Below are positions 2,049-28,764 of a stretch of 64,000 bases of DNA, one piece after another. The stretch spans positions 412 through 64,411 of the forward strand of contig JAYUJY010000174.1 of assembly GCA_043764895.1 (NCBI GenBank). Direction: 5' to 3'. Below the pieces are notes generated by a model that saw only the letters and a program-made list of their open reading frames with translations, made no database searches and was not told where the DNA came from. Made by a program: the position numbers and the translations under genes. The DNA is from Synechococcales cyanobacterium (GTDB lineage Bacteria > Cyanobacteriota > Cyanobacteriia > Leptolyngbyales > Leptolyngbyaceae). Each line of letters starts with the position of its first letter. Position 1 is the first letter of the stretch.

Positions 2049-2219
2049 TTCTGCGACTCGTTAGTGACTCGTTAGTGACTCGCTATGAGGATCAAATATT
2101 GCGATTTTTGGGTTCTGTGAACGATGACAGAGCAAAGTATAGACTAATAGCCCTCTAAAAGCATGATATTTTAGAGGGCTGATACGGTTTATCCCCTAGT
2201 TCTGACGGAGTGATAGTGC

Positions 2220-4142: not shown

Positions 4143-4150
4143 AAGTATCG

Positions 4151-4259
4151 GTTTAGGGCACGGTCGGTTTGGGGCACGGCAAGCCATGCCCCTACAAATC
4201 TATTTTCCAGAGATTGTAGGGGCATGGCATGGCCATGCCCTAAACCCAACGAAAAAGAG
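4151..4259. repeat. MITE-like hairpin repeat family R2 (GGGCACGGC..GCC.TGCCCCTACA arms), copy 1
   Basis: Long inverted repeat TTTGGGGCACGGCAAGCCATGCCCCTACA ... TGTAGGGGCATGGCATGGCCATGCCCTAAA between convergent genes. Related copies lie at 23972-24058 and 59163-59262. Confidence 0.85.
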
Positions 4260-4278
4260 ATCAATACTCCAATTGTTC

Positions 4279-6642: not shown

Positions 6643-6728
6643 GGGGGAGGGTCTCCTTCTGGATTTGAGCTAAACGGGATTTGAGGTCCAAATAGTGATT
6701 AAACGTCGATGCTTTTAACCCATTGTTT

Positions 6729-9614
6729 TCAGTCTACTATCTTAGCCTCTGGAAATTTCTCCGTTACATAGGTTTCAAGATCCTGTATTGCGATCGTAAT
6801 TGCGGCAAGAATCCTACCGATCTCAGATGCCTGTCGATCGGAATCACGATCGGGATCACGATCGGAACCCTCGGTGCTGGCCGTAAGAGGGCTAGTCAGC
6901 GCGGATTGATGGGTTGTGGCGGCGGTCTCAAGCTCCGCTGCTAGTGACGTTAAGACCGAGAGGCCAAGATTTCCGTGGGATCCTCGAATTTGGTGAGCGA
7001 TCGCACGTAACGTTTCATAGTCTTTTCGAGCATGTGCAGTTTGGAGATTGAGACTTCGGGCATGATTTTCGTGGACGGCAAGCTGTAAAAGTTCGATCGC
7101 GAGGGGACGGTTGTCCAAGGTCACTTGCATCAATGCTCTCCAGGCTTCCTCCCAGTTTTGCTTAGGCGGCGGTGCAGATGATGCGGTCTTTAGGGTTGTT
7201 GCTCCATCTGTAGACATTGATTCTTTGGGAGACATTGATTCTTTGGGAGACGTTAACGTGTTTGGATGCATTGTCATCGCTGATAGCTTGATCGAGATGG
7301 CTTGCAACTTGACGTCTAGATCCCCTAGCCGCAAGGGCTTCCCAAAAACATCATTCATCCCCGCATCCAAACAGGCTTTGACCGCAGACTCGGAGATGTT
7401 AGCGGTCATGGCCACAATGTGAATGTTCTGATACGCCTCATGGCTCGATCGAATGCGTTGGGTGACGGCCAGACCATCTAGTTTTGGCATTTGGACATCC
7501 ATCAAGATCAAATCGTAAGGCTGAAGTTTGATTTGTGTTAAAACAGCCTCACCATCGGTAACAACATCAGCGTGGTAGCCCAGTTGAGTGAGTTGAAGAA
7601 GAATCACTTTCTGATTAACTAGGTTATCTTCTGCGAGTAATATCTTTAGGGGCGATCGAGTAACAAGATCCATAGGGCTTAAGGCATTCAATTCACTCAA
7701 TTCATTCTCCACATCACCTTCCTGAGAACGAGCGACAAGCGTAAACAGTGGAACAACTGGAAAATTCAGCGTAAATTCAAATACCGATCCCACCCCGAGT
7801 TCACTGGTGACCTGCAATTGTCCACCCATCTGATTTACCAACTGTTGACTAATCACCAGTCCTAGCCCCGTCCCACCGTAACGTCGCTGAATGGACGAAT
7901 CCGCTTGAACAAAGGGCTGAAAAAGCCGATCGATCTGCGGTTTGGACATGCCAATTCCTGAATCTATGACTCGAAAGGTGAGGGAATAGAGGGTATTAGG
8001 GTCATTAGGTTGAGATTTGGTTTGCTGAGATTTAGTTTGCTGAGGTCTAACACGAGTCGAACCTGTTACTTCTAGACGCACTTGTCCCCGATCGGTAAAT
8101 TTCACCGCATTCCCTAAAAGATTAAGCAACACCTGCCGCAACCGCAAACCATCGCCCAGAAGTGCCGATGATGAACCGGACTGAAGATTTTTTTGAAGCG
8201 TCGTCTGAATACTATCCTGAATCCTGTATTGGAGTCCAATCGCCTTGGCATGGGCTTTCGTCTCAAGCAATGCGATCGTGAGCTTGACTTCATCGAATAG
8301 ATCAAAGGGAACTGATTCTAGCGATAGCTTCCCGGCATCAATCTTCGCAAAATCCAACACATCATTAATCAATCCCAACAACATCTCCCCGCTGCGATCG
8401 ATCGTTTGAATAGAGTCGCGATCTTGAGCGTCAAGTCCCGTGCGAGCCAATAGCAAATCGGTCATTCCCAAAATGCCATTCAACGGCGTCCGCAATTCAT
8501 GACTCATCACCGCCAAAAACTCACTCCGAACTTGCAGCAGCGCCTGTATCCGCAACCGATCGTTCACCACCGCAACTCCGCCCACTCCGCCCAACAACAA
8601 ACAAGGTGCAACCACCGGAATCCATACATTCAGATGAATCGCCACAAGTGCCCCGCTCACCCAAAGCCCTATTGATCCCACCACCACTGCGCACTGAACG
8701 CCCCAAGACCACCGACTCAACCCCCAGCTCAACAGTGCGCCCAAGGGCACTAATGCCCAAATATAGAGAGGATTTAGAACTAGTAAAAAGTTGTTTTGTA
8801 AAATATTATTGATCACCGTCAGATGAAAATAAACGCCGCTGCTGGGGACACTTCGATCGAAAGGCGTTTGAAGCGAGTCTGCCCCTGTGGTAGTCATGCC
8901 GATAAGGACGATTTTGTCTGTAAAAGCTGAGGCCGGAATTTCCCGAGCGAGGACGCTAGAAAAGCTATACCGAGTCGCTTTAGCGGTCGGTCCCTGCCAG
9001 TTCAGCCACAGTAACCGATCGCTTGGCAGCTTTACCGAGTCCTGTGTGATGAGCGAGTGGGTCTGAGAAACCGTAATTCCAAAGGCGTCTACACCCTGCT
9101 CATTAGGCTTGAGCGATCGGGCAATCCCGTCAGAACTACTTCGAGTCATGATATGTCCCATGCCGATCAAAGATTTCTGGAGCGCGGGACTTGGAAAGAT
9201 AGGCATTTGGTCCTGAGTCCAAGCAAGCGGCATCACAACGCGTTGATACTCATCCATCGCCTTCGCCAGTCCAGCATCTTCCCGACTTGGCTCTGAAAGA
9301 AGGATATCAAAGGCAATGACGCTTGGATTGGCGGGAGTGAGTTGTTCGATGAGCTGCTGATATCGCTTGCGAGACCACGGAAATGCCCCTAATTTTCTTA
9401 GACTATCGTCATCAATTTCAATCACGACCACTCGATCGTCCCAAGAACGCGCTCCTCTAGATTGAAACAAAACCCGATAGCTAGCATCTTCTAACGTCTG
9501 CCACATTCCACCCATTTGGGCCAAGCTCAGCCCCAACCCCAACAGGACACCAGGAAGCATTTTCACAAGATGAGGAGAGATTTTTTGAAGTTGAGCAGGC
9601 AGCATAGGGGACAA
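6729..9614 (-). CDS. CHASE2-sensor hybrid histidine kinase (CHASE2-TM-HisKA-HATPase-REC-HPt)
   Basis: CHASE2-like N-terminus (VVVIEIDDDSLRKLGAFPWSRKRY...AFDILLSEPS). H-box [14 protein letters not shown]-boxes DSGIGM/GGTGLGL, REC (ILLAEDN...LILMDVQMPKLDG), HPt (AHQIRGSHGNLG). Confidence 0.9.
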   Translation of the reverse strand: MSPMLPAQLQKISPHLVKMLPGVLLGLGLSLAQMGGMWQTLEDASYRVLFQSRGARSWDDRVVVIEIDDDSLRKLGAFPWSRKRYQQLIEQLTPANPSVIAFDILLSEPSREDAGLAKAMDEYQRVVMPLAWTQDQMPIFPSPALQKSLIGMGHIMTRSSSDGIARSLKPNEQGVDAFGITVSQTHSLITQDSVKLPSDRLLWLNWQGPTAKATRYSFSSVLAREIPASAFTDKIVLIGMTTTGADSLQTPFDRSVPSSGVYFHLTVINNILQNNFLLVLNPLYIWALVPLGALLSWGLSRWSWGVQCAVVVGSIGLWVSGALVAIHLNVWIPVVAPCLLLGGVGGVAVVNDRLRIQALLQVRSEFLAVMSHELRTPLNGILGMTDLLLARTGLDAQDRDSIQTIDRSGEMLLGLINDVLDFAKIDAGKLSLESVPFDLFDEVKLTIALLETKAHAKAIGLQYRIQDSIQTTLQKNLQSGSSSALLGDGLRLRQVLLNLLGNAVKFTDRGQVRLEVTGSTRVRPQQTKSQQTKSQPNDPNTLYSLTFRVIDSGIGMSKPQIDRLFQPFVQADSSIQRRYGGTGLGLVISQQLVNQMGGQLQVTSELGVGSVFEFTLNFPVVPLFTLVARSQEGDVENELSELNALSPMDLVTRSPLKILLAEDNLVNQKVILLQLTQLGYHADVVTDGEAVLTQIKLQPYDLILMDVQMPKLDGLAVTQRIRSSHEAYQNIHIVAMTANISESAVKACLDAGMNDVFGKPLRLGDLDVKLQAISIKLSAMTMHPNTLTSPKESMSPKESMSTDGATTLKTASSAPPPKQNWEEAWRALMQVTLDNRPLAIELLQLAVHENHARSLNLQTAHARKDYETLRAIAHQIRGSHGNLGLSVLTSLAAELETAATTHQSALTSPLTASTEGSDRDPDRDSDRQASEIGRILAAITIAIQDLETYVTEKFPEAKIVD

Positions 9615-9744
9615 AAGCAGTTCACTGCACCAATATTACTAGATATTAATAGATTTTTACGAGATAGACCTTGCTCTCCCCAAGCTATTTGATCCCTAGT
9701 TTCGATCGAAGTAGAAGATTCTTGTGACACTTGCGTACGCTATT

Positions 9745-11322
9745 TTACACCGAAGACTTTATTGGAATCCAAATCCGAAATTCCGTTCCCTGACCTATTT
9801 TTGAGCAGCATTTTAGGGTTCCTTTATGTTTTTCGACAATAATCTGGTAGCTGATAGATAAGCCCAAGCCAGTGCCTTTTCCAACAGGCTTTGTCGTAAA
9901 AAAGGGATCAAATAAACGATGCTGAATTTTCTCTAGAATTCCAATTCCATTGTCAATGATGCGAATCATCACGCCATCAGATTCGATCGCAGTACAGATC
10001 TGAATTTCTGGTTGTTTAATAAGTTTTTGTTGACAAGCCGACTCCATAGCGTCAATAGAATTGCTCAGTAGATTCATAAAAACTTGGTTGAGAAGACCCG
10101 CTGCACAGTCTATCAACGGCAAGTCAGCATATTGCTTGATCAGTATAATAGGAGGATGGTCGTAGCACGCTTTAAGCCGATACTGTAAAATAAGTAAGGT
10201 ACTTTCAAGGCCATCATGAATGTTTACCTGTTTAAATTCCGATTCATCCATGCGTGAGAAATTTCTGAGCGACAGCACAATATCCTGAATTCGACTCGCA
10301 CCCACTTGCATGGATGAAATAACTTGTAAAAAATCAATTTTCAAGAAATCGAACTCGATCTCATCCAATGTATGTTGGACGGATTTTGTTAAAACTGGAT
10401 AGGCAGTTTGGTAGACTGAAACTAGTTTAAATAAATCGTTTGTGTACTTGCTTACATAGGTTAAATTACCATAGATAAAGTTAACTGGATTATTGATTTC
10501 ATGGGCGATTCCGGCGACAAGCTGCCCGAGAGACGACATCTTTTCGGTTTGAATCAATTGACTTTGGGTCGATCGCAGCTTAGAAAGCGTCGTCTTTAAA
10601 GTTTCAGCTTGATCGTGAGTGGCTTGATACAATAACGCTTGCCCGATCGCACCCGTTACCTGTGCGAGCAAGTTCGATAAGACCACTAAATAATCAGCTT
10701 GGGCCGTCACGCGCGCGAATAGCGTTGCTTGATGGGCCGTATTGCCAACTGCAATTAAATATTGAGAAGTGGCATGAGTCGATCGAATCGGACAAAGAAT
10801 AAATTCGTCCATCCCCAACGTAGACCCTAAGTTAGGTTCGATCGGGGCATCAAGGGGACTTAAAATAAAATCTTGACCATCACTTCGATTTTTCAATCCT
10901 CCTAAACAAGGCCAGTCTAAAAGGGATAGCGTAAACTCGATCGGAGCTTCATCATCATCATAGCCGTCCCACAAAAAAGCCCTGAATACGTCTGAAGGAT
11001 CAGTATTTGACAACACATCCCGTTTAAAAATTAAGCATCGCTCAAAATTGAGATCGTACAGCATAAACTCCATAGCAATGGTTAATATTTCCGTCGGGAC
11101 AAACGTTGCTTTAAGGCGTTTTGCAATTTCATTGAGTTTCCGATAAAAATTAACTTGTACATCAAGTTTATTCTGAAACTCAATCATCGATCGTTCGACT
11201 TGAACCAGCCGTGTTACTTGGGCAACAAGCTGCTGATTAGAGGTCTCGACATGCTGTAAAGTACTCAGTTTATTGCGCAGTTTTTGGTTTTCAGCCTGAA
11301 GCCTTTCTAGTTCGAGGTTCAT
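9745..11322 (-). CDS. Sensor histidine kinase with N-terminal coiled coil and GAF-like region
   Basis: H-box GIAHEINNPVNF, N-box NLLSNSIDA, G-boxes DNGIGI/GKGTGLGLS. Confidence 0.85.
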   Translation of the reverse strand: MNLELERLQAENQKLRNKLSTLQHVETSNQQLVAQVTRLVQVERSMIEFQNKLDVQVNFYRKLNEIAKRLKATFVPTEILTIAMEFMLYDLNFERCLIFKRDVLSNTDPSDVFRAFLWDGYDDDEAPIEFTLSLLDWPCLGGLKNRSDGQDFILSPLDAPIEPNLGSTLGMDEFILCPIRSTHATSQYLIAVGNTAHQATLFARVTAQADYLVVLSNLLAQVTGAIGQALLYQATHDQAETLKTTLSKLRSTQSQLIQTEKMSSLGQLVAGIAHEINNPVNFIYGNLTYVSKYTNDLFKLVSVYQTAYPVLTKSVQHTLDEIEFDFLKIDFLQVISSMQVGASRIQDIVLSLRNFSRMDESEFKQVNIHDGLESTLLILQYRLKACYDHPPIILIKQYADLPLIDCAAGLLNQVFMNLLSNSIDAMESACQQKLIKQPEIQICTAIESDGVMIRIIDNGIGILEKIQHRLFDPFFTTKPVGKGTGLGLSISYQIIVEKHKGTLKCCSKIGQGTEFRIWIPIKSSV

Positions 11323-11349
11323 TGGACATTAATGGGTGAAACGGTGAAT

Positions 11350-12543
11350 TTATGAATAGATAGCAACTAGGACGAGCGTATAGTTGTGAAATGTGTTTCG
11401 TTGTCCGATCGGGGCGATTTCCCCATGGGAATAGAAGCCAATCCAAGGGAGATCTGTGCCAATACTGTTCTGGAGTTGATGGAGATTCTGATGCTTTTGA
11501 TTCTCTGTTAAAACTGATTTTCCTCGACCATAGCAATCAAACTGAAAGATCAACTTTGGCGATCGTCCGTCAAGTTGATCCTTAATAGATTGAGCCAGTT
11601 TTTCGGTGCCTTGGTAGATGAGTTCTTGGTCGCGTCGCATCACCCAAATGCTAGTTCCTTCAAACACCTCTGTTTGTAAGATTACTGCTCCCGCTGCTTC
11701 ATCTTTACGAGGTAAATAGCGAATCGCAAACTCGTCCTCACCCTGAAGTTTAAACCCGAAGCAAAAGGAAACCATGGTGCGATCCCATCGAGCCAGCTCG
11801 TCCTCCCTGAAGTACTGCCGCAGCACTTCAAAAACGGGTCTATGATCGAGTTCATAAATCATGTTGTCTGTCGCACGCGTGATTTTGTACTCAGTGCCGA
11901 TCGGAACACAGCCATGATTTGCGGCCCATGCAACTTGAGCGGTGCCAGACATAAGTGCAACAACGGTCCCATCCGTCAACACGCGATCGTCACAAAACTG
12001 GTACGTTAGTTTCATGTCTAAATTACTACCCGCAGCCCCGCCTAAGATGGGCAAGAAGTTTTGTGTTTGCAGCGTAGACTGTAGGCCCGTCGCAAGTCTA
12101 TCAAAGTTGAGGGTCAGCCCATCGGTAAAGAGGAATAGGGCGATCGGATTAGTCGGCATATCTATCTGAATCTTACGGCCCAAGGCTTTTCCCACCTGCT
12201 CAAAACTCAGTCTCTCAGAATCAGTTTCCTGATGATGCGTAAGGTGAGTTTTAAAGTGCAATTCATCAGACCTAATCACCATTACAGCAACAGAAAAACT
12301 AGATTCGTCTGCCTCTCCCTGTACGATCACGCCTTGCCCAGAGCAGCCGACCAAAGGACATCCTCCGGTCACTTGCCTAACGGCGGACAATAATTTTTCT
12401 GGATTGTATCCTAGTGAAGCGAAAAGTAGGACAAAATCCGGCTCCTCAGTTCCCGCCGCAAGAAATGCTTTTTTAACAGCCTCTTGAGCAGCTTTAACGG
12501 CGTTTCGCTGGTGACTAACTCCAACTCCAGTGAGCGTTCCCAT
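11350..12543 (-). CDS. FIST-domain signal-sensing protein
   Basis: 397-aa ORF with FIST_N/FIST_C-like layout (PDFVLLFAS...GCPLVGCSGQGVI...FLPILGGAAG...SHGEIAP). Sits directly upstream of the kinase. Confidence 0.75.
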   Translation of the reverse strand: MGTLTGVGVSHQRNAVKAAQEAVKKAFLAAGTEEPDFVLLFASLGYNPEKLLSAVRQVTGGCPLVGCSGQGVIVQGEADESSFSVAVMVIRSDELHFKTHLTHHQETDSERLSFEQVGKALGRKIQIDMPTNPIALFLFTDGLTLNFDRLATGLQSTLQTQNFLPILGGAAGSNLDMKLTYQFCDDRVLTDGTVVALMSGTAQVAWAANHGCVPIGTEYKITRATDNMIYELDHRPVFEVLRQYFREDELARWDRTMVSFCFGFKLQGEDEFAIRYLPRKDEAAGAVILQTEVFEGTSIWVMRRDQELIYQGTEKLAQSIKDQLDGRSPKLIFQFDCYGRGKSVLTENQKHQNLHQLQNSIGTDLPWIGFYSHGEIAPIGQRNTFHNYTLVLVAIYS

Positions 12544-14964: not shown

Positions 14965-15417
14965 ATGGAATCTTTTACTATGTTCATCCAATCTTTAAAA
15001 TTCATCGCACTCGGGGTCATGGGTGCGATCGCACTTAACGTCGTCACACCAACCCTTACCTCCGCAAAAGACGCCGCAAAACAGGCTCCACAAGCAGCCA
15101 CGCCTACCGCTAGAAAAGCTGCCCCATCCATTTGGGAGCAACTCAACCTCACCAAAGAACAAAAAGGTAAGCTCCAAGCTCTCCGAACTAAGCGAACCAT
15201 TACCATCAGCAAGGTTCTCAATAAAGATCAAAAAGCGACCTTTGATAAGCTGCGCGGCAAGAAGAAAGTGATGGACATGTTCACGGAACTCAAGCTAGAC
15301 GTAAACCAACAGAAATTGGTAAAGGCAGCGATCCAACAGGCCAATAAGGACATCATCTTAGTCCTCACCCCAGAACAACAAAAGCAACTCAGTGCCCGTA
15401 AGGAATCGGCTGAGTAG
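14965..15417 (+). CDS. Periplasmic Spy/CpxP-like (LTXXQ-motif) protein
   Basis: Signal peptide, then LNLTKEQKGKL and LTPEQQKQL motifs. 150 aa, lysine/glutamine-rich and helical. Confidence 0.55.
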   Translation: MESFTMFIQSLKFIALGVMGAIALNVVTPTLTSAKDAAKQAPQAATPTARKAAPSIWEQLNLTKEQKGKLQALRTKRTITISKVLNKDQKATFDKLRGKKKVMDMFTELKLDVNQQKLVKAAIQQANKDIILVLTPEQQKQLSARKESAE

Positions 15418-15460: not shown

Positions 15461-16828
15461 CTATTCCATAGGTAGACAAATTCTAAATTCAGATCCCTTG
15501 CCCTGAACAGACGTGCAGTCTAACGTTCCATGGTGTTTATCGACGATAATCTGTTGACTAATGGCAAGACCTAATCCTGTGCCACGACCGATCGGTTTGG
15601 TGGTGAAAGACTGCTCAAAAATGCGTTCTCGAATGGATTCTGGAACACCGATTCCATTGTCACGAATGGTAAAATAAACTTCATTTCGATCGACATTAGC
15701 AGATGTAATAATTTCAATCTGCCCGATGTGATTCTTCAAGTGATCGGGCTGCTCATAGTATTCATCAATGGCATCAATCGCATTTGCGATGACATTCATA
15801 AACACTTGATTGAGAGGTCCAGCATAGGCATCAATGGCTGGAATAGCGCCTAAAGAGGAGACGACTTGTATTTCAGGACGAGTGCTGTTGGCTTTCAGAC
15901 GATGCTTCAAAATCATCAGGGTGCTTTCTAACCCGTCATGAATCTGTATTTTCTCCTTTGCATGATCATCCGATCGGGCAAAACTTCGTAGCGACAGGCT
16001 AATTTCCTGAATTCGCGAAGAACTCGTCTGCATTGACTTTAGAAGCTTCGGCAAATCTTCTGCTAGATAGTCTACTTCTATTTCTTCTGAACGAGTTGTT
16101 ATCTGAGGATCGGGCGTTGGGTAAATCTCTTGATATAGAGCGATCAATCCTAAAAGATCTTGAATATAGCTAACGGCATGTTTGATATTTCCGTCAATGC
16201 AGCCAATGGGGTTATTGATTTCATGTCCAATGCCTGCAACAAGCTGCCCCAAGACCGACATTTTTTCACTTTGAATCAGTTGAAGTTGAGCCGTTTGAAG
16301 CTGATTGAGAGAGCCTTCAAGTTCTTGAGTTCGCTCTAGGACGCGCTGTTCAAGACGGTTGTTGAGATAGAATAAGTTGAGATGAAGCTTAATTCGAGCG
16401 AGGACTTCCTCATGTTGAAAAGGCTTGGTAATATAATCAACAGCCCCAAGTTCTAGTCCCTTCACCTTGTCTACTGTATCAGAAAGGGCAGTCATGAAAA
16501 TAATCGGCAGACGCTGCGTTCTTGGGTTAGCTTTGAGCTGACGACAGGTCTCAAAACCGTCAATTCCAGGCATCATGACATCCAGCAAAATCAAGTCGGG
16601 CAGGGCATAGTCTACTTGCTCAATAGCCGACTCACCGTCTGTTGCCACGAGCGTCGTCCAGCCTTGATCGCGAAGGGCATCCGACAAAACTTTTAGGTTG
16701 GTGGGATTATCATCCACAATTAGAATTTTGGGCGTGGATGAAAAATATTCTATTGACCCCTTGCGATCGCTGATCGTCTCACCGATCGTCACCGCGATGG
16801 TCGAAATGGGTTGAGCGCTAGCGATCAT
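15461..16828 (-). CDS. REC-domain histidine kinase (response regulator fused to HisKA/HATPase)
   Basis: REC ([10 protein letters not shown]...[13 protein letters not shown]...KP). H-box [12 protein letters not shown]-boxes [15 protein letters not shown]. The start overlaps the upstream kinase stop (ATGA). Confidence 0.9.
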
Positions 16829-19716
16829 GATACAGACTCCAAGGGAGCGAAGGATTTAAGGAACTCACGAATCTTTTTAGTTTGAAAACTATTCACAAGC
16901 GGACTCAATGCTGCGACAAAAGGTTCAAGTTCAGGATGATTCTTTGAGATTGTTTCTAGAGTGCCCGAGAGCGTCTGCAAATCACCCATCATTGCCAAAT
17001 GGCGTAGTTTTTCAAGCACGTCTGGACTCGGTGCAATCATCGGACCTGTGGGTTGTTTTGGCAGATGGTTTGTACTTGCAGCGGCACTGGACAAATCCTC
17101 GGCAAGAGCATAGGACCACTCTATGGGAAGAAGCTGGCCTAAGTGCGTGACAAGCTGCTCAAACTGAATGGGTTTGGCCAAGAAACCATTGGCCCCAGCT
17201 TGAAGACTGCGGGTTTGATCAGCCTCAAACACACTGGCGCTGGCGATCAAAATGGGTCGATCGGTCCACTCAGGTTGGGTTCGGAGTTGTTTGACGAGGC
17301 TAGCTCCGTCAAGTTTGGGAAGATTGAGATCGGAGATAGTGAGGTCGGGCTGGAGCGATTGGGCGATGGCTAAACCTGAGGCTCCGTCTTCGGCTTCTGT
17401 GACCTTAAACCCGAGATCTTTGAGCCAGATGGAGAGCAGTTGACGGTTCATCGCATCGTCGTCGATGAGCAGAATGTGCGGGATGAAGTCGGTTAAAGAA
17501 ACGTCTGAATTAGGAATGACTTTGCGACTGAATCCGACAATGCGAGAGGGAGTAATAGCCTCGTGCGATCGGCTAGACGTAATCACCGGAAGCGTGAGGT
17601 CGAAGAAGAAAATACTGCCTTCCCCAGCCTGACTCTGGACTTGGAGTTGGCTCTCCATGAGGTTGACGATGTTGGTACTAATGGCGAGACCCAAGCCAGT
17701 GCCTTCCGATTGTTTGCCCACATCACCCACCTGTTCAAAGGGCAGAAAAATCTTTTCTAACTGCTCAGGCGACATCCCCACTCCAGTGTCTTCGATTTGA
17801 AAGCGTAGCCGTGTGGTGTGATGGACTTTGGGCTGGGCCGCCGTAGACGAGTCGAGTTCGGTGACGCGCAGGGTGACGCTCCCTTGTTCGGTGAATTTAG
17901 TTGCGTTTCCTAAGAGATTAATGAGCACCTGACGCAACCGTTTTTCATCAGATTGGATGCAAATCGGCAGTTGAGCCTGAAAATCCACTTTAAATTGCAA
18001 TGCCTTCTGCTCAGCCCTCACTCGACAAATTTCGACCACGCCCTGCAAAAAAGGCAGCAACATGATTTCGCCGGGAGCCAGTTCGAGTTTGCGCGCTTCG
18101 ATTTTCGAGAGGTCGAGAATGTCGTTAATTAGGGTCAGCAGATGAGTGCCGCACTGGTGAATGATGTTAACGCCTTCTTTTTCTCCTTGGCTAAAAGTCT
18201 TCGATCGGGACAAAATTTGCGCATATCCAAGAATTCCGTTCAGAGGCGTGCGCAACTCGTGACTCATATTGGCCAAAAATTCGCTTTTGGCATGGTTCGC
18301 GGAGTCGGCGCAGTCTTTGGCGATCATCAGTTCTTGGGTGCGTTCTTGGACCTTGAGTTCGAGGGTTTTGGAATAGTTGCGAAGCTGGTGGTTGACAATC
18401 GCGAGCTGGTCGTTGGATTCTTCGAGTTTTTGTTGTTTGTGAGCGAGCGTTAGGGCAATAGCGCTTGTCATCAGGGTGCTAAGGGTCGGCACGACGGGAA
18501 TTAGCCAGCCGGATAAAAAGGCTCCGTAGGCACTTCCTAAAATGACGACAATTCCGGCGCTGGTAACGAAGATAAGGCTGCCTGAGGGAAGACGCTTGCG
18601 CTGCGATCGATCGGCAACGGCCCAACTCACGGCGGTGGCGGCGATCGCCCATGCGGTGATCCAACTATAGGTTAGGGGTGCGGTGAAGCTTTGGAGTTGG
18701 GTGGATTGTTGGAGTGCGCCTGTGGTGAGCTGATGGGCGATATTTGCGTGGATTAGGACGCCGGATGTGGGTTGATCGCCGCCAAACCAGGACTGGCTAT
18801 AGGGACTGCCAAAAAAGTCATTGGTACTCTGAGCAATCGAACCAATCAGAACCATTCGATCACGCAAGGTATCGGGTGAGATGCGATCGGCGAGAATATC
18901 CCGCATTTTGACTTGTTTAAATTTCGTGCTGTCGCCATACCAGTTGAGAAAAATCTGATATCCGCCTAGGTCTTGATTCACGTAACCGCCTTCACTATTG
19001 GCAATCTGTCGATAGTGCGTTTTGCCGAGTTGGTAGTAATTTTTAGCTTCGTCCGTAACCTTGAGTTCGATGCCTTTGGTTTTGAGATGGAGCAGGGCTA
19101 CTTGGGTGGCGAGGCCCGGTTTGATGGTTTTGTTTTCTTTTTCATCATCGGCGGTCAGTAGTGCTCGACGAATCCGACGATCGCCATCTAGGGTGAGATC
19201 CGCAAGGCCCACTTGCCCCAGTTTCTTAAGTTCGGGGGGCGGGGGAACTCGATCGCCGATGATCTTTTCGACGCCGATTAGTGCGGGTGTCGTTTGAAAT
19301 ACTTTTTTGAGGTCGTCGTAGCCTTTCCCGACGGGCAGATCACGGTAGAGATCCATGCCAATGGCGGTGGGTTTTTGAGCGCGAATTTTGGTGATCAGTT
19401 GGGCCAGAACGCTGTCTGGAATAGGCCAGTCCCCAACCTGCTGAAGATCTTGTTCATCAATGGTGACGACAATAATTTCAGATTGTTCTTTAGGGTTTTG
19501 CTGGCTTCGCACCCGAAAAAACGTATCACGGGCTTCCCATTCCGGTAGGTTAAATCCGCCGATCGCTTGGATGCCGACAATACTCAGGGTCACGATCGGC
19601 GCAACGCTAAGACAACGCCGCGATCGATAGGCCCAGCTCTGGCTAATCCAACCCTGACGAAGACTTTTTTGGATCTGGAGGAATTTTGGCAACTGGGGGA
19701 AGCGCAATCGAAACAT
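16825..19716 (-). CDS. CHASE2-sensor hybrid histidine kinase (CHASE2-TM-HisKA-HATPase-REC-HPt-like)
   Basis: CHASE2-like N-terminus ([21 protein letters not shown]...GMDLYRD). H-box [29 protein letters not shown] (ILLIDDD...[11 protein letters not shown]). The start is placed at the ATG at 19716, because the longer ORF to 19848 translates repeat R1. Confidence 0.88.
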
Positions 19717-19800
19717 GGGCAATGCGGTGGGAAAGGGCGACAGCGACGAACGGGAAGATAGGCTGTGAAGAGGGAATAGAGCGTGAAAAGGAGAATTTAG

Positions 19801-19873
19801 AAAGCCCCCCAGCCCCCAATTCTGGGGGAGCATGATTCCGAACATCACAGAATTGGGGGTTGAGGGCCGGAAC
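19801..19873. repeat. Palindromic repeat family R1, copy B (reverse orientation)
   Basis: AAAGCCCCCCAGCCCCCAATTCTGGGGGAGCATGATTCCGAA...CAGAATTGGGGGTTGAGGGCCGGAAC matches the reverse complement of 1270-1349. Confidence 0.85.
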
Positions 19874-19912
19874 TTTATGTCTACGCAAAGACCTGAACGA
19901 AGATCTTAGAGG

Positions 19913-20941
19913 CTACTGGTATTGCAGCATGGGCGCAGACTGAATCGACTGCAATCCTACGGAGGTCAGTAGTTCTTGCCAGTTCTTGCGCGATGCCTCA
20001 TGATCAGGCTTTTGCTCGATCGCTTCGGCAAGGGCAGATGCACTGTCATACCAGATGCCAACACTGGCAAGCGCCTCGGCTCGGGCGATCGCATCGGGCT
20101 TTTTCAAGGCGGCGGTCATTTCAGCCGTGGGTGCGATGCGTTGAATCCAGCCGTCCACGTAGGGCGTACTCGGACTCAGACGACCATCGATTTTCAAGGC
20201 CGTAAGCCACTGATAGTTTTTTCCTACGTCTAGCGCAGGAACCGAGGCGGGCAGTTGGACCCGTGCGATGCCTGCTTCCCCTGAAATCGGCAAAACAGTC
20301 TGATAGATCAACTGTCCAGCTTCATCCTTAAGGCTAAAGACCGCTTCTTCAGCATTGGATTCGGGCAAGTAAACCAAAATGCTCGGACGATCGGATAGCG
20401 TTGTCCCGTAGAACTCTTGTGGCACTAAGGCCATTAGGGCTGCGGGATACTGAGTAGACTCTGCGGGATTGACGTAGGCCGTGGCATCACGAGAGGCTCC
20501 ACCCGCCGTTTGCTTCGGGGCGCTACCGCTGGAGAACATGGCCCCACGGGATGCGCCGCCCACTGCCCGCAAGACTCGACCTGTGGGTTTGAACAGGATG
20601 CCGCGAGAGGCTCCTCCGACGGATTGGCGAATGGTTCGACCCGGCATGGGCTTGAACAAGGTGCCGCGAGAGGCTCCTCCGACGGAGGTTTTGGGTGCGC
20701 CGCCGTTACGGGAGACAAATTGGGTTCCCCGAGATGCGCCGCCTGTGGATTGTTTTGGGGCGGCATTTTGGCGGGAGGGCTTGAATATGACGGCTTGGGC
20801 TGGGGTCATTTCAAGGGCGATCGCGCCTAGGGTGAGGGCGATCAGACTCCAACGGCTCACGAGGGAGCTGGTATGGGTTCCGATCGTAGATTTCCTAACC
20901 ATATATTCTCCGAAGATATATTTGAGAGGGAGTTGTTTCAT
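19913..20941 (-). CDS. Secreted DUF928-family protein with five N-terminal GGASRG-containing repeats
   Basis: Signal peptide ending AQA. Five units of about 20 aa each end in GGASRG/GGASRD (aa 51-155). The C-terminal region (YQWLTALKIDG...PYVDGWIQRI) resembles DUF928. An alternative start lies at 20902. Confidence 0.7.
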   Translation of the reverse strand: MKQLPLKYIFGEYMVRKSTIGTHTSSLVSRWSLIALTLGAIALEMTPAQAVIFKPSRQNAAPKQSTGGASRGTQFVSRNGGAPKTSVGGASRGTLFKPMPGRTIRQSVGGASRGILFKPTGRVLRAVGGASRGAMFSSGSAPKQTAGGASRDATAYVNPAESTQYPAALMALVPQEFYGTTLSDRPSILVYLPESNAEEAVFSLKDEAGQLIYQTVLPISGEAGIARVQLPASVPALDVGKNYQWLTALKIDGRLSPSTPYVDGWIQRIAPTAEMTAALKKPDAIARAEALASVGIWYDSASALAEAIEQKPDHEASRKNWQELLTSVGLQSIQSAPMLQYQ

Positions 20942-21138
20942 GCGTAAACACGGATGAAGAGATCATTCTTTAGCGTAAACAAGGTTGATGAGTCTAGTCG
21001 GTCGTGGAATTGCGTGTTTCCTCGACTGACAGCGGTTGGATGCCGCCGTTTTTCAGTAAAACTACTCTTTTTTGAGGGATCTTTTGAGGAATCTAAGGTA
21101 AGCGTCTGACGCCAGTTAGGGGCTACACCCATTGCGGT

Positions 21139-23817
21139 CTAACGCCAGTTGCCGACCAAGACAAATCCCGACCAGAAAAAGGGATCGTCAAAGTCGGTTT
21201 GTTTCATAATTTCGATTTGGGCTTGGCGGAGGGCTTCGGCCTTGGTGGTGCCCGGTTGGCGGAGGTGAGTATAGAAGCGGGTCATCAGGCTTGCAGCGGC
21301 GGCGTCCTTGACGGGCCATAGGGTGGCAAGAGTCGATCGTGCGCCTGATTTGACCGCGAGTCCAGCGAGTCCTAGGGCCGCATATTCATCGCCCGCTGCC
21401 GTGTCGCAGGCACTGAGGACCAATAGTTCAATCGCTCTGGTGCGGCTAGTCTGCCGGGATTGGAGCACTTCTGACAGTTCTTTGATGTTCATCCGTCCGT
21501 CCCAGGTCAGCAGGAAAGTTTCTTCTTGCCGGGAGCTAAATTGACCGTGGGTGGCGAGGTGGACGACATCGGCGGAGCTATTGCTGAGCCTGTCGGCAAG
21601 GGCTTTGCTGGTAAATTGCTCGTTGAGCAGGGTCCGGGAGTTGACGAGATCGGCGATTTGTTGGATTTCTTTTTTGACGGCGGGGAGTGCGCTAAAACCC
21701 GATCGAGATTCGCTGATACCGCCAACGACGGCTCCAATATGTTGGTTGTCGAGGGGTTTGTCGGCCATGAGCTGCAATCCTGGGGAAAGCGTCACGGCAT
21801 ATTTTTCGATCAGATATTGTTTTCCGTCGTAGAGCGCCGCCATGGGAATGTTCCGCAGTTGGCCGTCTAGTACGAAGACGAGGGTTTTTGTATCCTTGAG
21901 GGCACCTGCTGTTTCTGCCGGACGGATCAGCCAATCGTAGAGCTGACTGGAAATCTCTAGGCGCGTTTTGCGATCGGAGACGGGGTTAATGGCCGCAAGG
22001 AGATTGTTGAGGGTGGTGTTGACCTGTTGGTTATTCCGATTGCTGCTGTGGTAGCGCAGAGGCTGTCCGGCGGTAGAGAAGATCACGGCAATGCGTTCGG
22101 GGAGCAGAATCGGGTAGACGACGGTGGCGGTGCGATCGACTTGATCGATTTGCTTGGCTTTGTCAAGGCAGGCTTCCCGAAAGAAATTATCGAGTTCGGC
22201 CACTTGCAAGGCTTCAATCAGGTTTCGAGCTTGGGTTAGCTCCTCTTGGTTGGGGTTCTGCGTCAGCAAAATATCCACCATTTCCCGATACACAGGTTCC
22301 ACGCTCTCACGGAAGGAGAACTGGATTTCAGGATTGATCGCTACGAGATCCCCACGCAGGGCTTGCAGCGCTTTGGTGGCCTCTTGATAGGCTTGCAGGG
22401 CACGCGATCGATCGTTTTGGGCGTTTAGAATCTGGCCGAGTTGCCATGCGGATTGAGAGATGATGTGTTCGGCTTGCAGTTGGCGCGCGATCGCGAGGGA
22501 TTGTTCGGTGACTTGCTGGGCTTCACGCAACTGTTTGGCTTCGACGTAGACCTGTCCCAATTGATGCAGACCGTAGGCTTCGGCTTCGGCGTCTCCTAAA
22601 CCTCGGGCGGACTGAATGGCTTGGGCTAGCCACTCGGACAAGTCTCGGAGCGGGGCGACTTGGGTGGGATCTTTTAGTCGGTTGATGTTTGCGGTGAGGT
22701 TGATGATGCTGTAAATCGAGAGGCGGCTAGGGGGGAGTTTGAGGAGCTGCGATCGGATATTGGGAAGGCGTGCATTGACTTCCTTGAGGTTGCCTTGGTT
22801 GAGGTAGATATTGAACTGTCCGAGTTGGGCTTGAACTTTTTCCAGTGGATTGACGGCCACTTTTTCCGCTTCTTCGAGATATTTCAACGCCGTTTCGTCT
22901 TTGCCGCTGCTATTGCAGGCATCCCCTAGCGCTAGGAGGGCAGAGCTAAGTTCTGGCGCAGATTTAAGCCGACGGGCGGTCATCACAGCAGCTTCGAGAG
23001 CGGCTTGACTTCCGGTCATGTCACCGACGACTTGCAACACGCTTCCGAGATTCCGAAATCCTGAGATTTTTAAGTCGGAGTCGGGGAGGGTGACGAGTTT
23101 TTGGTTTAAGCCTTCAAGTTGAGTTTTGGCACGACGATAGAAGCCTAGGCTCTGGAGCGCTTGGGCTTGGTTGATTTGGCTTCCAATATTGCCAACGGTG
23201 TCGCCTGCTTTTTCGTAGTATTGTGCAGACTGTTGCCAGGTAGCGAGGGCGAGTTCGGCTTTTCCCGTTTGGAGTAAGATGCCCGCTTGGGTGTTGAGAA
23301 CCTGCGCCCAGAGCGTCGCGTCGGTACCTTTGCCGCCTTGCGTTTGGGACTGTTCTTTGAGGAGTTTTAGGCTGGTATTAATGGCTTCTCTCGCGGCATC
23401 CCATTGATTGAGTTCTTGTTGGGCGAGGGCGAGGTAGTTCAGCGCTAGGGCTTGGGTCGTGCGATCGCCTTGACTAGCGGCTTGGTCGGCGGCGGCTTGC
23501 CAGAGTTTTGCGGCGGCGTTGAATTGTCCGGCTTGATAGGCCGATCGTCCGGCTTCTAAGCCTCCCGTGGCGTCCTTGAGGGGTGCAAAGGTGGGTGCAG
23601 CGGCGATCGAACCGGGCACTGGATTAGGGACTAGGCGATCGAGTGCGGCGGGAACGGTGCGTTTGCTGGGGGTGGGGTTGGCGAGGGTCTGGGCCGTTGC
23701 AAACAGAGGCACACTCATACAGCCTAAGGTGCTAGCCAGCAGGGCATGACGCAAAATCTTCGAGGTCCAGATGGACACCGAAGGCTGAACAGGATGAAGG
23801 CAAGGGCGATCGCGCAT
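21139..23817 (-). CDS. Secreted TPR + CHAT-domain (caspase-like) protease
   Basis: N-terminal signal peptide and multiple TPR-like helices. C-terminal CHAT domain with His (VVHLATHGQF) and Cys (LLVLSACDTAAGD) dyad. Confidence 0.88.
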   Translation of the reverse strand: MRDRPCLHPVQPSVSIWTSKILRHALLASTLGCMSVPLFATAQTLANPTPSKRTVPAALDRLVPNPVPGSIAAAPTFAPLKDATGGLEAGRSAYQAGQFNAAAKLWQAAADQAASQGDRTTQALALNYLALAQQELNQWDAAREAINTSLKLLKEQSQTQGGKGTDATLWAQVLNTQAGILLQTGKAELALATWQQSAQYYEKAGDTVGNIGSQINQAQALQSLGFYRRAKTQLEGLNQKLVTLPDSDLKISGFRNLGSVLQVVGDMTGSQAALEAAVMTARRLKSAPELSSALLALGDACNSSGKDETALKYLEEAEKVAVNPLEKVQAQLGQFNIYLNQGNLKEVNARLPNIRSQLLKLPPSRLSIYSIINLTANINRLKDPTQVAPLRDLSEWLAQAIQSARGLGDAEAEAYGLHQLGQVYVEAKQLREAQQVTEQSLAIARQLQAEHIISQSAWQLGQILNAQNDRSRALQAYQEATKALQALRGDLVAINPEIQFSFRESVEPVYREMVDILLTQNPNQEELTQARNLIEALQVAELDNFFREACLDKAKQIDQVDRTATVVYPILLPERIAVIFSTAGQPLRYHSSNRNNQQVNTTLNNLLAAINPVSDRKTRLEISSQLYDWLIRPAETAGALKDTKTLVFVLDGQLRNIPMAALYDGKQYLIEKYAVTLSPGLQLMADKPLDNQHIGAVVGGISESRSGFSALPAVKKEIQQIADLVNSRTLLNEQFTSKALADRLSNSSADVVHLATHGQFSSRQEETFLLTWDGRMNIKELSEVLQSRQTSRTRAIELLVLSACDTAAGDEYAALGLAGLAVKSGARSTLATLWPVKDAAAASLMTRFYTHLRQPGTTKAEALRQAQIEIMKQTDFDDPFFWSGFVLVGNWR

Positions 23818-23971
23818 AAGAACTGGGGTACGAACTCAGGGTGATTGTAGTTGTTCCCTAGAGTGCCCAGCTTTACAACGAGATTGCGCGTTTGAATTTA
23901 AATAAATGTTAAATCAGCTTTAAATATAGGTTGGCTTTAAAGCTAAGGAACAAAGCTGTATTAAAATCAGG

Positions 23972-24058
23972 CTTTGGGCACGGCATAGCCATGCCCCTAC
24001 ACTCTCTGAAACCCGGATCTGTTGGGGAATGGCTCGCCGTGCCCCAAACCCAACGAGG
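23972..24058. repeat. MITE-like hairpin repeat family R2, copy 2 (diverged right arm)
   Basis: CTTTGGGCACGGCATAGCCATGCCCCTACA ... GGGGAATGGCTCGCCGTGCCCCAAACCCAAC. Confidence 0.75.
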
Positions 24059-24117
24059 AGGAGTTGAATCGCTGGATTACTCAAGCCGCAGACGATTGGG
24101 GAAAATTGTAGATCTTA

Positions 24118-24828
24118 TTAAGTTCTGATTTCTAACCCATTGGATTCTAATGCTTTAAACCGATCGAGCAAACTTGCTTCGTTATGAAGGTCAATATCTT
24201 TATTGAATTGCTCAGATTCATAGTAGGCTCTAGACCTAAAGCTTGCTTCTTGCTCATATCGATCGGCATTTTTATATCGACGAATGGATGCTGCTAGGAC
24301 ATTAGGAAAATAAATCTGCTGGGAAAACACTTCGCTAGAGCGTTCTAGCCTGATCTGAGCGTACTTCTCGAAGCTTTCAGCGGCAAATGCAATACAGTTG
24401 TTTAGGAACAAGTTGTACCGAAATTCATCTAGGTGTAGCTTTGGCGATCGTGTGTTTGTCCCGACAAATAGTTCATCAATGAGTACACTTGATACCATCT
24501 TGGTGATAAATTCATCGCCTCCAAACGGTGGTGATTTCTTAAAGTACATTCGATCGACGCGCCTTATATCTCTCTGATCGTCGCGAAGCTGGCCTTCTGG
24601 GTAAAAAGAGCAGGTGTAGAGTTCAGGAATCAGTTGGCCGTAGCTATTCTTTTTGGTGAGCAGACAGGCTTCTTTATCACTGGCTTTTTGACAGGCTCTT
24701 AGCTTTTGGATATCAAACTTCATTCCAGCAAGATAAGCATGGCCGATCGAATTTTCACCATCGGTCGATTCGACGCCCAACATGAGAAGAGCCATAGTCT
24801 GATTTGAACTAGTCTGATTTGAACTCAT
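24118..24828 (-). CDS. Hypothetical protein, possible papain-like (PPPDE/LRAT-type His...Cys) fold
   Basis: IGHAYL early in the protein and YNLFLNNCIAFAAESF later resemble the His/Cys signature of permuted papain-fold peptidases. There is a 15-bp tandem duplication at the 5' end (SSNQT x2). Confidence 0.3.
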   Translation of the reverse strand: MSSNQTSSNQTMALLMLGVESTDGENSIGHAYLAGMKFDIQKLRACQKASDKEACLLTKKNSYGQLIPELYTCSFYPEGQLRDDQRDIRRVDRMYFKKSPPFGGDEFITKMVSSVLIDELFVGTNTRSPKLHLDEFRYNLFLNNCIAFAAESFEKYAQIRLERSSEVFSQQIYFPNVLAASIRRYKNADRYEQEASFRSRAYYESEQFNKDIDLHNEASLLDRFKALESNGLEIRT

Positions 24829-27720: not shown

Positions 27721-28764
27721 ATGAAAAACATTCAACTTCCCGAACCTTTAATTGTTCTTGTGCCATCACGGGATACTGCGGCGATCGAATTCCGATCGAG
27801 TTCTAAATCAGAGTCCAAACGATCGCCGCAGTCCACCCCTTCGGACCCAACTGAACTAAGATCGCTGCGAATTGAAGAGTTTTTGTCCGCGCGATCGCTG
27901 TCGCTGAATAGTCAGAAAGCTTACCGCGCAGATCTCACCCGGTTTACCACCTGGAGTAACCAAAGCTGGCAGGCCGCCACTCCACGCTTGATGGCCCAGT
28001 TCAAAACCCATCTGATGCGGGTTGATCCGAAGACGGAATCTCGCGTTCTAGCGGATAGCTCGGTCCAACGCATTGTGCATAGCTTAAAAAGTTTTTATAG
28101 CTGGATGCAAGACACGGGATACATCACGGTTAATCCCATGAAAGCGATCGTCGCCCCGAAAGTCAAACAACCGCAAGCCGATCACTTAACAGATGAACAA
28201 GTCACCGCAATTTTTACAGCAGCCCTAGACCTCCATCCTGCCGAACGCAACCTAGCGCTGCTGTCTGTTTTGCGTCATGGACTGCGGGCGGGGGAAGTGT
28301 GCGGGCTAAATCTAGGCGACTATGACGGCGAACGGGTCACCATTCGCGAAGCCAAGGCAGACAGTACGGGCGTTGTGCCGATTGATGCGGATGGCCAGGG
28401 CTGGATCGATCAGTATTTGCGATTTCGGGCCGATCGAGGCGAAGACCTCACTGACACTAGCCTTCCCCTATTTGTCTCTCACTCCCACCAAAACGATGGC
28501 CAACGGCTCGGCTACCACGGCGTCCAAAAACTCATGGGTGCGATCGGGCGGGTCGTCGGCTTCAAGTTCCACGCCCACCAGTTCCGCCACACCTACGCCA
28601 CCAACCTTGTCCTCAAAGGCATGAACCCTTACCACGTCATGACGCTGACCCGCCACAAGTCACCGCACACCTTCCGCCGCTACACCCAAGCCGCCGACCA
28701 ACTCGCCGCCGAAACCGCCTTTCGATCGATTTCCGAATTTACAACAACCCACGATATCGAATAA
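27721..28764 (+). CDS. Tyrosine recombinase / phage-integrase family (XerC/D-like)
   Basis: Catalytic blocks RHGLRAGEV, HQFRHTYAT, LTRHKSPHTFRRY. The 3' end overlaps the convergent mrp gene by 26 nt. Confidence 0.85.
   Translation: MKNIQLPEPLIVLVPSRDTAAIEFRSSSKSESKRSPQSTPSDPTELRSLRIEEFLSARSLSLNSQKAYRADLTRFTTWSNQSWQAATPRLMAQFKTHLMRVDPKTESRVLADSSVQRIVHSLKSFYSWMQDTGYITVNPMKAIVAPKVKQPQADHLTDEQVTAIFTAALDLHPAERNLALLSVLRHGLRAGEVCGLNLGDYDGERVTIREAKADSTGVVPIDADGQGWIDQYLRFRADRGEDLTDTSLPLFVSHSHQNDGQRLGYHGVQKLMGAIGRVVGFKFHAHQFRHTYATNLVLKGMNPYHVMTLTRHKSPHTFRRYTQAADQLAAETAFRSISEFTTTHDIE

Follow-up and report, generated by a model that had tools for sequence, protein, structure and literature searches.

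The 64-kb stretch of cyanobacterial DNA analysed here, hereafter the window, contains a cassette of four consecutive genes on the minus strand, which encode a TPR-CHAT protein (21139-23817, 892 aa), a DUF928 protein (19913-20941, 342 aa), a CHASE2 hybrid histidine kinase (16825-19716) and a REC-histidine kinase (15461-16828, 455 aa). All coordinates are positions in the window, except those preceded by an L-number, which are coordinates of separate loci. Open reading frame calls and Pfam searches place the four genes where the preliminary description of this DNA had placed them, and its gap sizes are also confirmed: 197 nt, 196 nt and then a 4-nt ATGA overlap (16825-16828). The overlap of the two kinase genes is also seen in the orthologous loci, and the REC-kinase is translationally coupled to the CHASE2 kinase. 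The mechanical open reading frame of the CHASE2 gene reaches a GTG at 19848, and the conservation among orthologs starts at the ATG at 19716; the extra stretch between the two start codons contains a palindromic repeat.

The sequence of the TPR-CHAT gene product points to an exported caspase-like (clan CD) protease. The signal peptide (~23692-23817) is followed by the TPR region (~22138-23535; TPR_12, 9e-21) and the CHAT domain (21148-21954, residues 622-890; PF12770, 9.6e-65), which matches profile positions 3-289 of 289 with 219 bits, as compared to a cutoff of 24. The catalytic motifs HLATHGQF (His, 21538-21561) and LSACDTA (Cys, 21397-21417) are invariant in 78 orthologs, and the His/Cys dyad recognized in the preliminary description is thereby intact. 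The signal peptides that it had assigned to the CHAT and DUF928 proteins are likewise general: a Sec-type signal peptide, with an n-region, a hydrophobic stretch and an AxA-type site, is present in all 78 TPR-CHAT orthologs and in five paralogs, and the DUF928 protein and its relatives also begin with a signal peptide.

The DUF928 protein is composed of the signal peptide (~20792-20941), a disordered arm (20489-20791) and the globular DUF928 domain (19928-20503, residues 147-338; PF06051, 4.6e-51), which matches profile positions 2-184 of 184 with 173.6 bits (cutoff 26). As expected for the repeat-bearing secreted protein that had been described, the arm consists of five units of 19-21 residues, each closing with GGASR (20729-20743, 20666-20680, 20603-20617, 20546-20560 and 20489-20503), so that the motif GGASR(G/D) recurs with a period of 19-21 residues. 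Among 120 cluster representatives of the orthogroup, GGASR is 100% invariant (635/635 instances), with Gly at +1 and Phe at +4 in 93% each, and a protein contains 3 to 9 copies, most often five. The five copies in the window use differing synonymous codons, and no tandem repeat is detected at the DNA level in the gene. A recent tandem duplication was therefore rejected, and the repeat peptide itself is under selection. In most of the distant DUF928 paralogs inspected, a single related motif is followed by Cys (consensus PPxPPxRGxPGxRxGGASRGxC), and duplications of this single-copy motif recur among them. We therefore regard a signal peptide, followed by a G-[AGT]-[ST]-R motif before the domain, as a hallmark of DUF928 proteins; the window protein has it, with the motif in five copies and without the following Cys of the single-copy members. 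The family is large, with 6810 clusters at 50% identity (E up to 0.001).

In the AlphaFold2 (AF2) model calculated from the 120-sequence alignment, the arm has a predicted local distance difference test (pLDDT) score below 50, indicating disorder, while that of the domain exceeds 90. Since the arm is disordered in the model, it would be open to a protease. The domain (residues ~170-340) folds in the model into a seven-strand, immunoglobulin (Ig)-like beta-sandwich with four helices. A Foldseek search with it retrieved the C-terminal domain of MtxA (E 1.5e-5), the function of which is unknown, and otherwise generic Ig, FN3 and CBM sandwiches, and a sequence search of the PDB yielded no match. 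With these matches alone, a fold-based assignment of function was abandoned. The modelled domain looks like a binding module rather than an enzyme.

The third gene product is a hybrid kinase with Pfam matches to CHASE2 (PF05226, 187 bits, 4.7e-55), HisKA, HATPase_c and Response_reg. Hydropathy and the AF2 model agree that its CHASE2 ectodomain (~18637-19590) is bracketed by one N-terminal hydrophobic helix (19552-19617) and three C-terminal ones (18445-18594). Because of this bracketing, the ectodomain is predicted to be periplasmic and the kinase cytoplasmic, in agreement with the extracytoplasmic location proposed earlier, and the CHAT protein, the DUF928 protein and the CHASE2 ectodomain are predicted to meet outside the cytoplasm. 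The CHASE2 region is modelled as an alpha/beta ectodomain with high confidence (pLDDT 94, predicted TM-score 0.92). A Foldseek search of the PDB with the model of 18637-19590 found no structural relative (best E 1.1, TM-scores <0.2), and the modelled fold thus appears to have no representative among the solved structures. Many acidic residues are invariant in the CHASE2 alignment (E44, D86, D107, D162 and D164), and these could pair with the invariant Arg of the GGASR motif.

In the cytoplasmic half, the HisKA domain (18094-18291) with its H-box SHELRTPL (18238-18264), the HATPase domain (17590-17949) and the REC domain (17140-17475) with its acceptor Asp (motif at 17317-17337) are all present. 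The REC-kinase is composed of a REC domain (16388-16726; Asp motif, 16568-16588), an H-box GHEINNP (16208-16228) and a HATPase domain (15467-15817), and matches Response_reg, HATPase_c and, weakly, HisKA in Pfam. Among the orthologs, the H-boxes of both kinases are invariant and the Asp motifs of both REC domains are conserved. The tail of the CHASE2 kinase (16828-17064), about 60 conserved residues with an invariant His in YHLAMMGD (16981-17004), had been described as HPt-like, and the signal had been proposed to pass through it. This part of the preliminary description is not supported: no HPt is detectable in the tail, either in Pfam with E up to 10 or with a tail profile against the PDB sequences, and HPt was accordingly discarded as the identity of the tail. 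Considering its conservation and its invariant His, a cryptic HPt is still conceivable in this region. The hybrid kinase can be separated from its REC domain, since one ortholog (L098:7001-11110) encodes CHASE2-HisKA-HATPase and a REC protein of 221 aa as two genes, with the REC-kinase gene next.

How well is the cassette conserved? We collected 80 loci by scanning a genome collection with the DUF928 alignment, and assigned their genes by tblastn and clustering of open reading frames. These loci derive from Nostoc, Calothrix, Aulosira, Leptolyngbya, Pantanalinema, Alkalinema, Lyngbya and others. All 80 contain DUF928, 78 have TPR-CHAT, 76 the CHASE2 kinase and 74 the REC-kinase, and the absent genes fall at contig ends. 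The order CHAT, DUF928, CHASE2 kinase and REC-kinase on one strand is kept in about 76 of the 80 loci. None of the nine specific flanking genes of the window is found next to the cassette in these loci, indicating that the cassette is an autonomous unit. The non-cassette flanks of the 80 loci (~1.2 Mb) contain only one extra CHASE2 and two extra CHAT open reading frames. In a Nostoc metagenome-assembled genome, the main cassette is directly followed, on its downstream side, by another cluster of paralogous TpsA-CHAT and DUF928 genes (28% identity; L014:15276-20841), and in another locus (L064), an extra TPR-CHAT gene is located immediately upstream.

The linkage extends beyond the orthogroup. 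DUF928 paralogs with 24-33% identity occur in 23 records on cyanobacterial plasmids, and we examined 13 of these cases. CHASE2 is directly adjacent in nine, an exported TPR-CHAT lies in the fetched flank in ten, and none of the 13 lacks both; TpsA is found in six and TpsB (ShlB) in one. The cytoplasmic modules of the nine CHASE2 neighbours vary, with an N-terminal CHAT-like domain in five, AAA_35 in one, HATPase in one and none in two. Many paralogous DUF928 genes adjoin CHAT-like-CHASE2 fusions, sometimes together with DUF1822 and a sigma factor. Next, we approached the linkage from CHASE2, using eight proteins in which ectodomains 36-52% identical to that of the window are joined to other outputs. 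Five of them (two kinases, one cyclase and two GGDEF proteins) are flanked by TPR-CHAT and DUF928. A tie to the characterised CHASE2-GGDEF protein Dgc2 was considered and rejected, because neither DUF928 nor CHAT adjoins the genes of two Dgc2-like orthologs. Finally, a scan with a different DUF928 subfamily yielded 80 metagenome loci, which we annotated with the profile hidden Markov models (HMMs) built in this study. CHASE2 is directly adjacent to DUF928 in 55 of the 70 evaluable loci. Among the 37 loci with at least 6 kb on both sides, CHASE2 is present in 34, CHAT in 24, two-partner secretion (TPS) genes in 21, and CHASE2 or CHAT in all 37. Thus, the co-occurrence of DUF928, CHAT and CHASE2, which the preliminary description had left to be checked, is far above chance in both the orthogroup and the distant paralogs.

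In order to compare the three partners, we performed Mantel tests on the pairwise divergence of 12 DUF928/CHASE2/CHAT triads, in which CHAT was represented by its catalytic domain only. The correlation is strongest between DUF928 and the CHASE2 ectodomain (r 0.73, p 2e-4), as compared to DUF928-CHAT (r 0.48, p 8e-4) and CHAT-CHASE2 (r 0.52, p 0.003). When the two orthologs of the window are left out, DUF928-CHASE2 is the sole significant pair (r 0.64, p 4e-4), and CHAT-CHASE2 has r 0.27 (p 0.075). Since DUF928 tracks the sensor domain whatever the output and also co-diverges with it, we consider DUF928 and CHASE2 as the core pair, while the exported CHAT protein would be a frequent, more exchangeable third member. 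The idea of a three-component unit is thereby modified: its members are indeed conserved, linked and predicted to be extracytoplasmic, but the tight pair is DUF928-CHASE2, and CHAT is sometimes absent and does not co-diverge when the orthologs are omitted. The TPR part of the CHAT protein, unlike the catalytic domain, might co-diverge differently.

Most of the orthologous loci contain a further component. In 63 of the 80, one to three tandem TpsA-type genes, annotated with the filamentous hemagglutinin N-terminal domain, lie directly upstream of CHAT. These genes encode proteins of ~830 aa, are located at ~1500-7100 in the loci L002 to L080 (for example, L002:1581-4346 and 4431-6962), and share the strongly conserved C-terminal segment QQIATGC...S.FVATGRGGVPQNP...LTC. 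No TpsB gene is seen beside the TpsA genes of the orthologous loci, and no TpsA-like sequence (TPS/haemagg_act) exists anywhere in the 64-kb window. The preliminary description is to be corrected in this respect, since most orthologs also carry upstream TpsA genes that are absent here. The possibility that the TpsA C-terminus shares a motif (S.FVATGRGGVPQNP) with the DUF928 repeat was considered and rejected, as the repeat HMM scored TpsA no better than shuffled proteins. On plasmid4 of Calothrix brevissima, a CHAT protein carries N-terminal POTRA and POTRA_2 domains before its TPR and CHAT regions (L093:9251-13153, minus strand) and adjoins a CHASE2-DUF928 pair. This POTRA-TPR-CHAT fusion hints at a direct tie between the exported proteases and two-partner secretion.

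Are the four genes transcribed together? The gap between DUF928 and CHASE2 contains the palindromic repeat R1 (19813-19859), in which the arms CCCCCAATTCTG and CAGAATTGGGGG are separated by a loop of ~23 nt. A second copy, also intergenic, is located at 1286-1332, and the window contains five arm matches, as compared to 0.37 expected by chance. The palindrome thus lies in the 196-nt gap, as described, but it is a dispersed element and is not specific to the cassette. Its RNA folds into a strong hairpin (-35.5 kcal/mol, z -2.9) that lacks a U-tract, and it was not predicted to be a terminator; no terminator-like site on the minus strand and no known RNA element (Rfam, E up to 1) was found in the cassette gaps. 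Co-transcription of the four genes is therefore possible, as judged from the sequence. A candidate sigma-70-like promoter (24105-24134, minus strand) lies ~290 nt upstream of the CHAT start, with a weak match to the consensus (9/12); promoter-like matches are fewer in this region than in its shuffles, and the candidate is only a pointer.

The functions of the surrounding genes (esterase, alcohol dehydrogenase, M15 dipeptidase, integrase, LTXXQ protein, AmiA-like amidase, methyltransferase and FIST protein) are unrelated to the cassette. Directly upstream of CHAT, a 236-aa open reading frame (24118-24828, minus strand) matches no Pfam family and lacks a counterpart in the related loci, and an open reading frame of 1463 aa is present at 34754-39145 (plus strand). 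An LTXXQ-motif gene (14965-15417, plus strand) is convergent with the REC-kinase gene, and a short open reading frame occupies the same place in a close relative (L089). The LTXXQ motif denotes the CpxP/Spy family of periplasmic stress proteins. A tyrosine integrase gene (27721-28764, plus strand) lies 4 kb upstream of the cassette. We also considered a horizontally transferred island: the G+C content of the cassette region (17000-24000) is 52-56%, that of the immediate flanks is 43-47%, and that of the window ranges over 42-56%, with other parts reaching 54-56%. The cassette is thus high in G+C yet inside the range of the window, and the same close relative keeps the same downstream genes. 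On the strand of the cassette and 3 kb downstream of it, a second signalling cluster (4279-12543) encodes a FIST protein (11350-12543), a histidine kinase (9745-11322), a CHASE2-HisKA-HATPase-REC kinase (6729-9614) and a REC-Trans_reg_C-REC-GGDEF protein (4279-6642). Over its C-terminal ~300 residues, the histidine kinase shares 47% identity with the cassette REC-kinase, and the CHASE2 kinase carries a true Hpt domain.

Based on these observations, we propose that the cassette is a self-contained periplasmic signalling system, in which DUF928 is the partner of CHASE2, the protease acts on the DUF928 arm and the kinase pair relays the signal; we assign a probability of about 50% to this reading. 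DUF928 would be the cognate periplasmic partner of CHASE2, as either a ligand or a co-receptor. The Sec-exported TPR-CHAT protease would act on the DUF928 arm, most likely at the invariant Arg-Gly bond, and the cut would either shed peptides of 19-21 residues or trim the arm. The altered DUF928 would then change the input to CHASE2 and thereby switch the kinase activity. Subsequently, the phosphoryl group would pass directly from the hybrid kinase, with its own REC domain as a modulator, to the REC of the downstream kinase coupled to it, and this REC-kinase would control a response regulator encoded elsewhere. This direct kinase-to-REC transfer is the simplest reading, as compared to a relay through an HPt. 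From the gene content, conservation and models, we infer that the partners bind physically, that the arm is cut and at which bond, in which direction the kinase is regulated, and how the phosphoryl group is transferred.

Several observations weigh against this proposal. Without the orthologs, the divergence of DUF928 does not correlate with that of CHAT (r 0.16, p 0.23), and in 13 of the 37 full-flank metagenome loci, no gene for an exported CHAT protein lies within 10 kb. The P1 specificity of a CHAT protease is not apparent from its sequence, and a characterised one, Csx29, is not known to cut after Arg. Since the CHASE2 model has no relative in the PDB, the class of the ligand is not inferable from its fold. 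Furthermore, some CHASE2 proteins have no DUF928 at hand: one CHASE2-SpoIIE and two Dgc2-like CHASE2-PAS-GGDEF proteins lack a DUF928 neighbour, and the other CHASE2 kinase of the window (6729-9614) is accompanied by neither DUF928 nor CHAT. Within the cassette, an HPt domain is not detectable, and a conserved terminal response regulator is missing. Moreover, the two ~197-nt gaps and the strong hairpin could split the cassette into separate transcripts.

In its most specific form, the proposal makes DUF928 the cognate ligand of CHASE2: in this subfamily, the protease would cut after the Arg of GGASR, before the following Gly, and free several ~20-residue peptides per precursor, and the peptide would activate the kinase. 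The periplasm of filamentous cyanobacteria is continuous and shared along the filament, and a cell-to-cell peptide signal, driven by a caspase-family protease, is therefore conceivable along the filament. We regard this specific form as rather unlikely. If it is true, then the GGASR peptide signal would be a bacterial analogue of the polyprotein precursors of neuropeptides.

The most plausible of the alternatives, although we still consider it doubtful, is that DUF928 is a co-receptor for an external or envelope ligand, much as LuxP is for LuxQ or TorT for TorS, with the GGASR arm as a tether or docking site, while CHAT has another task, for example the maturation or release of TpsA, or the turnover of the complex, and makes no signal. 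The co-divergence of DUF928 with CHASE2 and not with CHAT when the orthologs are omitted, the existence of DUF928-CHASE2 pairs without an exported CHAT, and the binding-type sandwich with helices, which has no enzyme-like match, are all consistent with this alternative, as are the TpsA genes preceding CHAT in 63 of the 80 loci and the POTRA-TPR-CHAT fusion. However, the window and several other loci contain CHAT, DUF928 and CHASE2 with no TpsA nearby, and DUF928-CHAT pairs also occur without CHASE2. Moreover, the extreme conservation and the copy expansion of a short disordered motif fit a processed or recognized peptide better than a tether. It is improbable, in our view, that DUF928 instead acts as a bait, a pseudo-substrate or an inhibitor of the protease, so that CHASE2 monitors the protease activity or the proteolytic stress of the envelope, with other envelope proteins or the receptor itself as the true substrates. 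DUF928 is linked pairwise to both partners like a hub, several identical modules could titrate a protease, and MG-like beta-sandwich domains are among the weak structural matches; but these matches are generic Ig and FN3 folds, the best one (MtxA) is uninformative, DUF928 has no thioester or other hallmark of an inhibitor, and the co-divergence points to a closer partnership with CHASE2 than with CHAT.

The paralogous DUF928 genes beside CHAT-like-CHASE2 fusions, sometimes with DUF1822 and a sigma factor, match the architecture described in PMC8195603, and raise the possibility that the cassette is a conflict or programmed-cell-death system, akin to the EACC2-caspase-CHASE2 systems with an extracytoplasmic function (ECF) sigma factor and DUF1822, which senses signals of invaders or damage instead of an endogenous peptide. 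We consider this very unlikely here. The cassette has two kinases as its output in place of a cytoplasmic caspase, its neighbours include neither an ECF sigma gene nor a DUF1822 gene, and it is syntenic and vertically conserved over the Nostocales and Leptolyngbya-like lineages, rather than sporadic. PADLOC gave only weak, partial matches (20-26 bits), and a known anti-phage defence system was rejected on the same grounds. Finally, the four genes could be neighbours without a shared function, separated into different transcripts by the two ~197-nt gaps and the hairpin. The conservation of order and orientation in ~76 genomes with unrelated flanks, together with the recurrence of the linkage in paralogs with shuffled order, effectively refutes this explanation.

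CHASE2 was defined in 2003, and its ligands were still called unknown in 2023 (PMC10581220). The statement in the preliminary description that no function has been assigned to DUF928 is borne out by the searched literature, in which only PMC5587647 names DUF928 and assigns it no function. That study reports a CHASE2/DUF928/WD40 neighbourhood in N. punctiforme only, among the seven cyanobacteria surveyed, and an acid-stress response of sll1891. No paper in the searched literature discusses CHASE2 together with the CHAT domain, as the co-mentions are a metacaspase survey (with "Chat" as an author surname) and two conference proceedings, and none was found on the CHAT-DUF928-CHASE2-kinase combination.

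CHASE2 is found at the head of histidine kinases, diguanylate and adenylate cyclases, phosphatases and caspase-like effectors. The present analysis reveals that, in cyanobacteria, DUF928 regularly accompanies CHASE2 in the genome and co-diverges with it, and that the two are usually encoded together with an exported caspase-like protease. It thereby provides the first functional context for DUF928 and for many exported cyanobacterial TPR-CHAT proteins, and ties them to the two-partner-secretion exoproteins and the caspase-CHASE2 "conflict" systems. It also offers a purifiable candidate for the ligand or co-receptor of CHASE2 and a defined candidate cleavage motif, which makes the CHASE2 ligand question directly testable.

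How does the cassette compare with known signalling systems? LuxP-LuxQ and TorT-TorS employ periplasmic binding proteins as the co-receptors of hybrid kinases. As in these systems, the gene of a soluble periplasmic protein adjoins that of a hybrid kinase and co-evolves with its ectodomain; however, DUF928 is not a Venus-flytrap protein, and has a disordered repeat arm and an accompanying protease. In Gram-positive peptide signalling, an extracellular protease processes a secreted precursor for a membrane kinase, as in the SepM-CSP-ComD system of S. mutans and the maturation of Phr. The proposed logic, in which a dedicated extracytoplasmic protease acts on a secreted precursor and a membrane kinase senses the peptide, is the same, and a candidate precursor, a candidate protease for it and a membrane kinase are encoded together and conserved in the cassette. 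The protein families differ, however, and the putative precursor in the cassette is a folded protein of 290 residues with 3-9 tandem modules, predicted to reside in the cyanobacterial periplasm. The type III-E Craspase, with its TPR-CHAT protein Csx29, and separase are site-specific regulatory proteases of the cytoplasm or the nucleus, controlled by RNA or securin. The TPR and CHAT architecture and the His/Cys dyad are shared with them, whereas the cassette protein has a signal peptide and envelope partners.

Two CHASE2 systems allow a closer comparison. The CHASE2 cyclases of S. meliloti, the closest functional parallel and a precedent in favour of the proposal, answer a protein signal through the outer-membrane protein NsrA (PMC7529298, PMC13001267). 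There too, a CHASE2 receptor receives a proteinaceous input through a dedicated envelope partner, although for the cassette this arrangement is proposed from the sequence. In S. meliloti, the partner is an outer-membrane beta-barrel, the signal is the exogenous basic protein uL2 and the output is cAMP, with no DUF928, CHAT protease or repeat precursor, whereas the output of the cassette is a kinase pair. Kaur et al. (2021; PMC8195603) described EACC2-caspase-CHASE2 fusions with an ECF sigma factor and DUF1822, in a text from which the term DUF928 is absent. A caspase-superfamily domain and CHASE2 are likewise combined in one system, and DUF928 adjoins such fusions in the paralogous loci. However, the caspase of the fusions is a cytoplasmic, N-terminally fused effector, while the CHAT protein of the cassette is separate and predicted to be exported, and the output is HisKA-HATPase-REC. 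As judged from its genes, the cassette is an undescribed and widespread envelope-signalling module, a variant of accessory-protein-coupled or protease-coupled sensor-kinase signalling.

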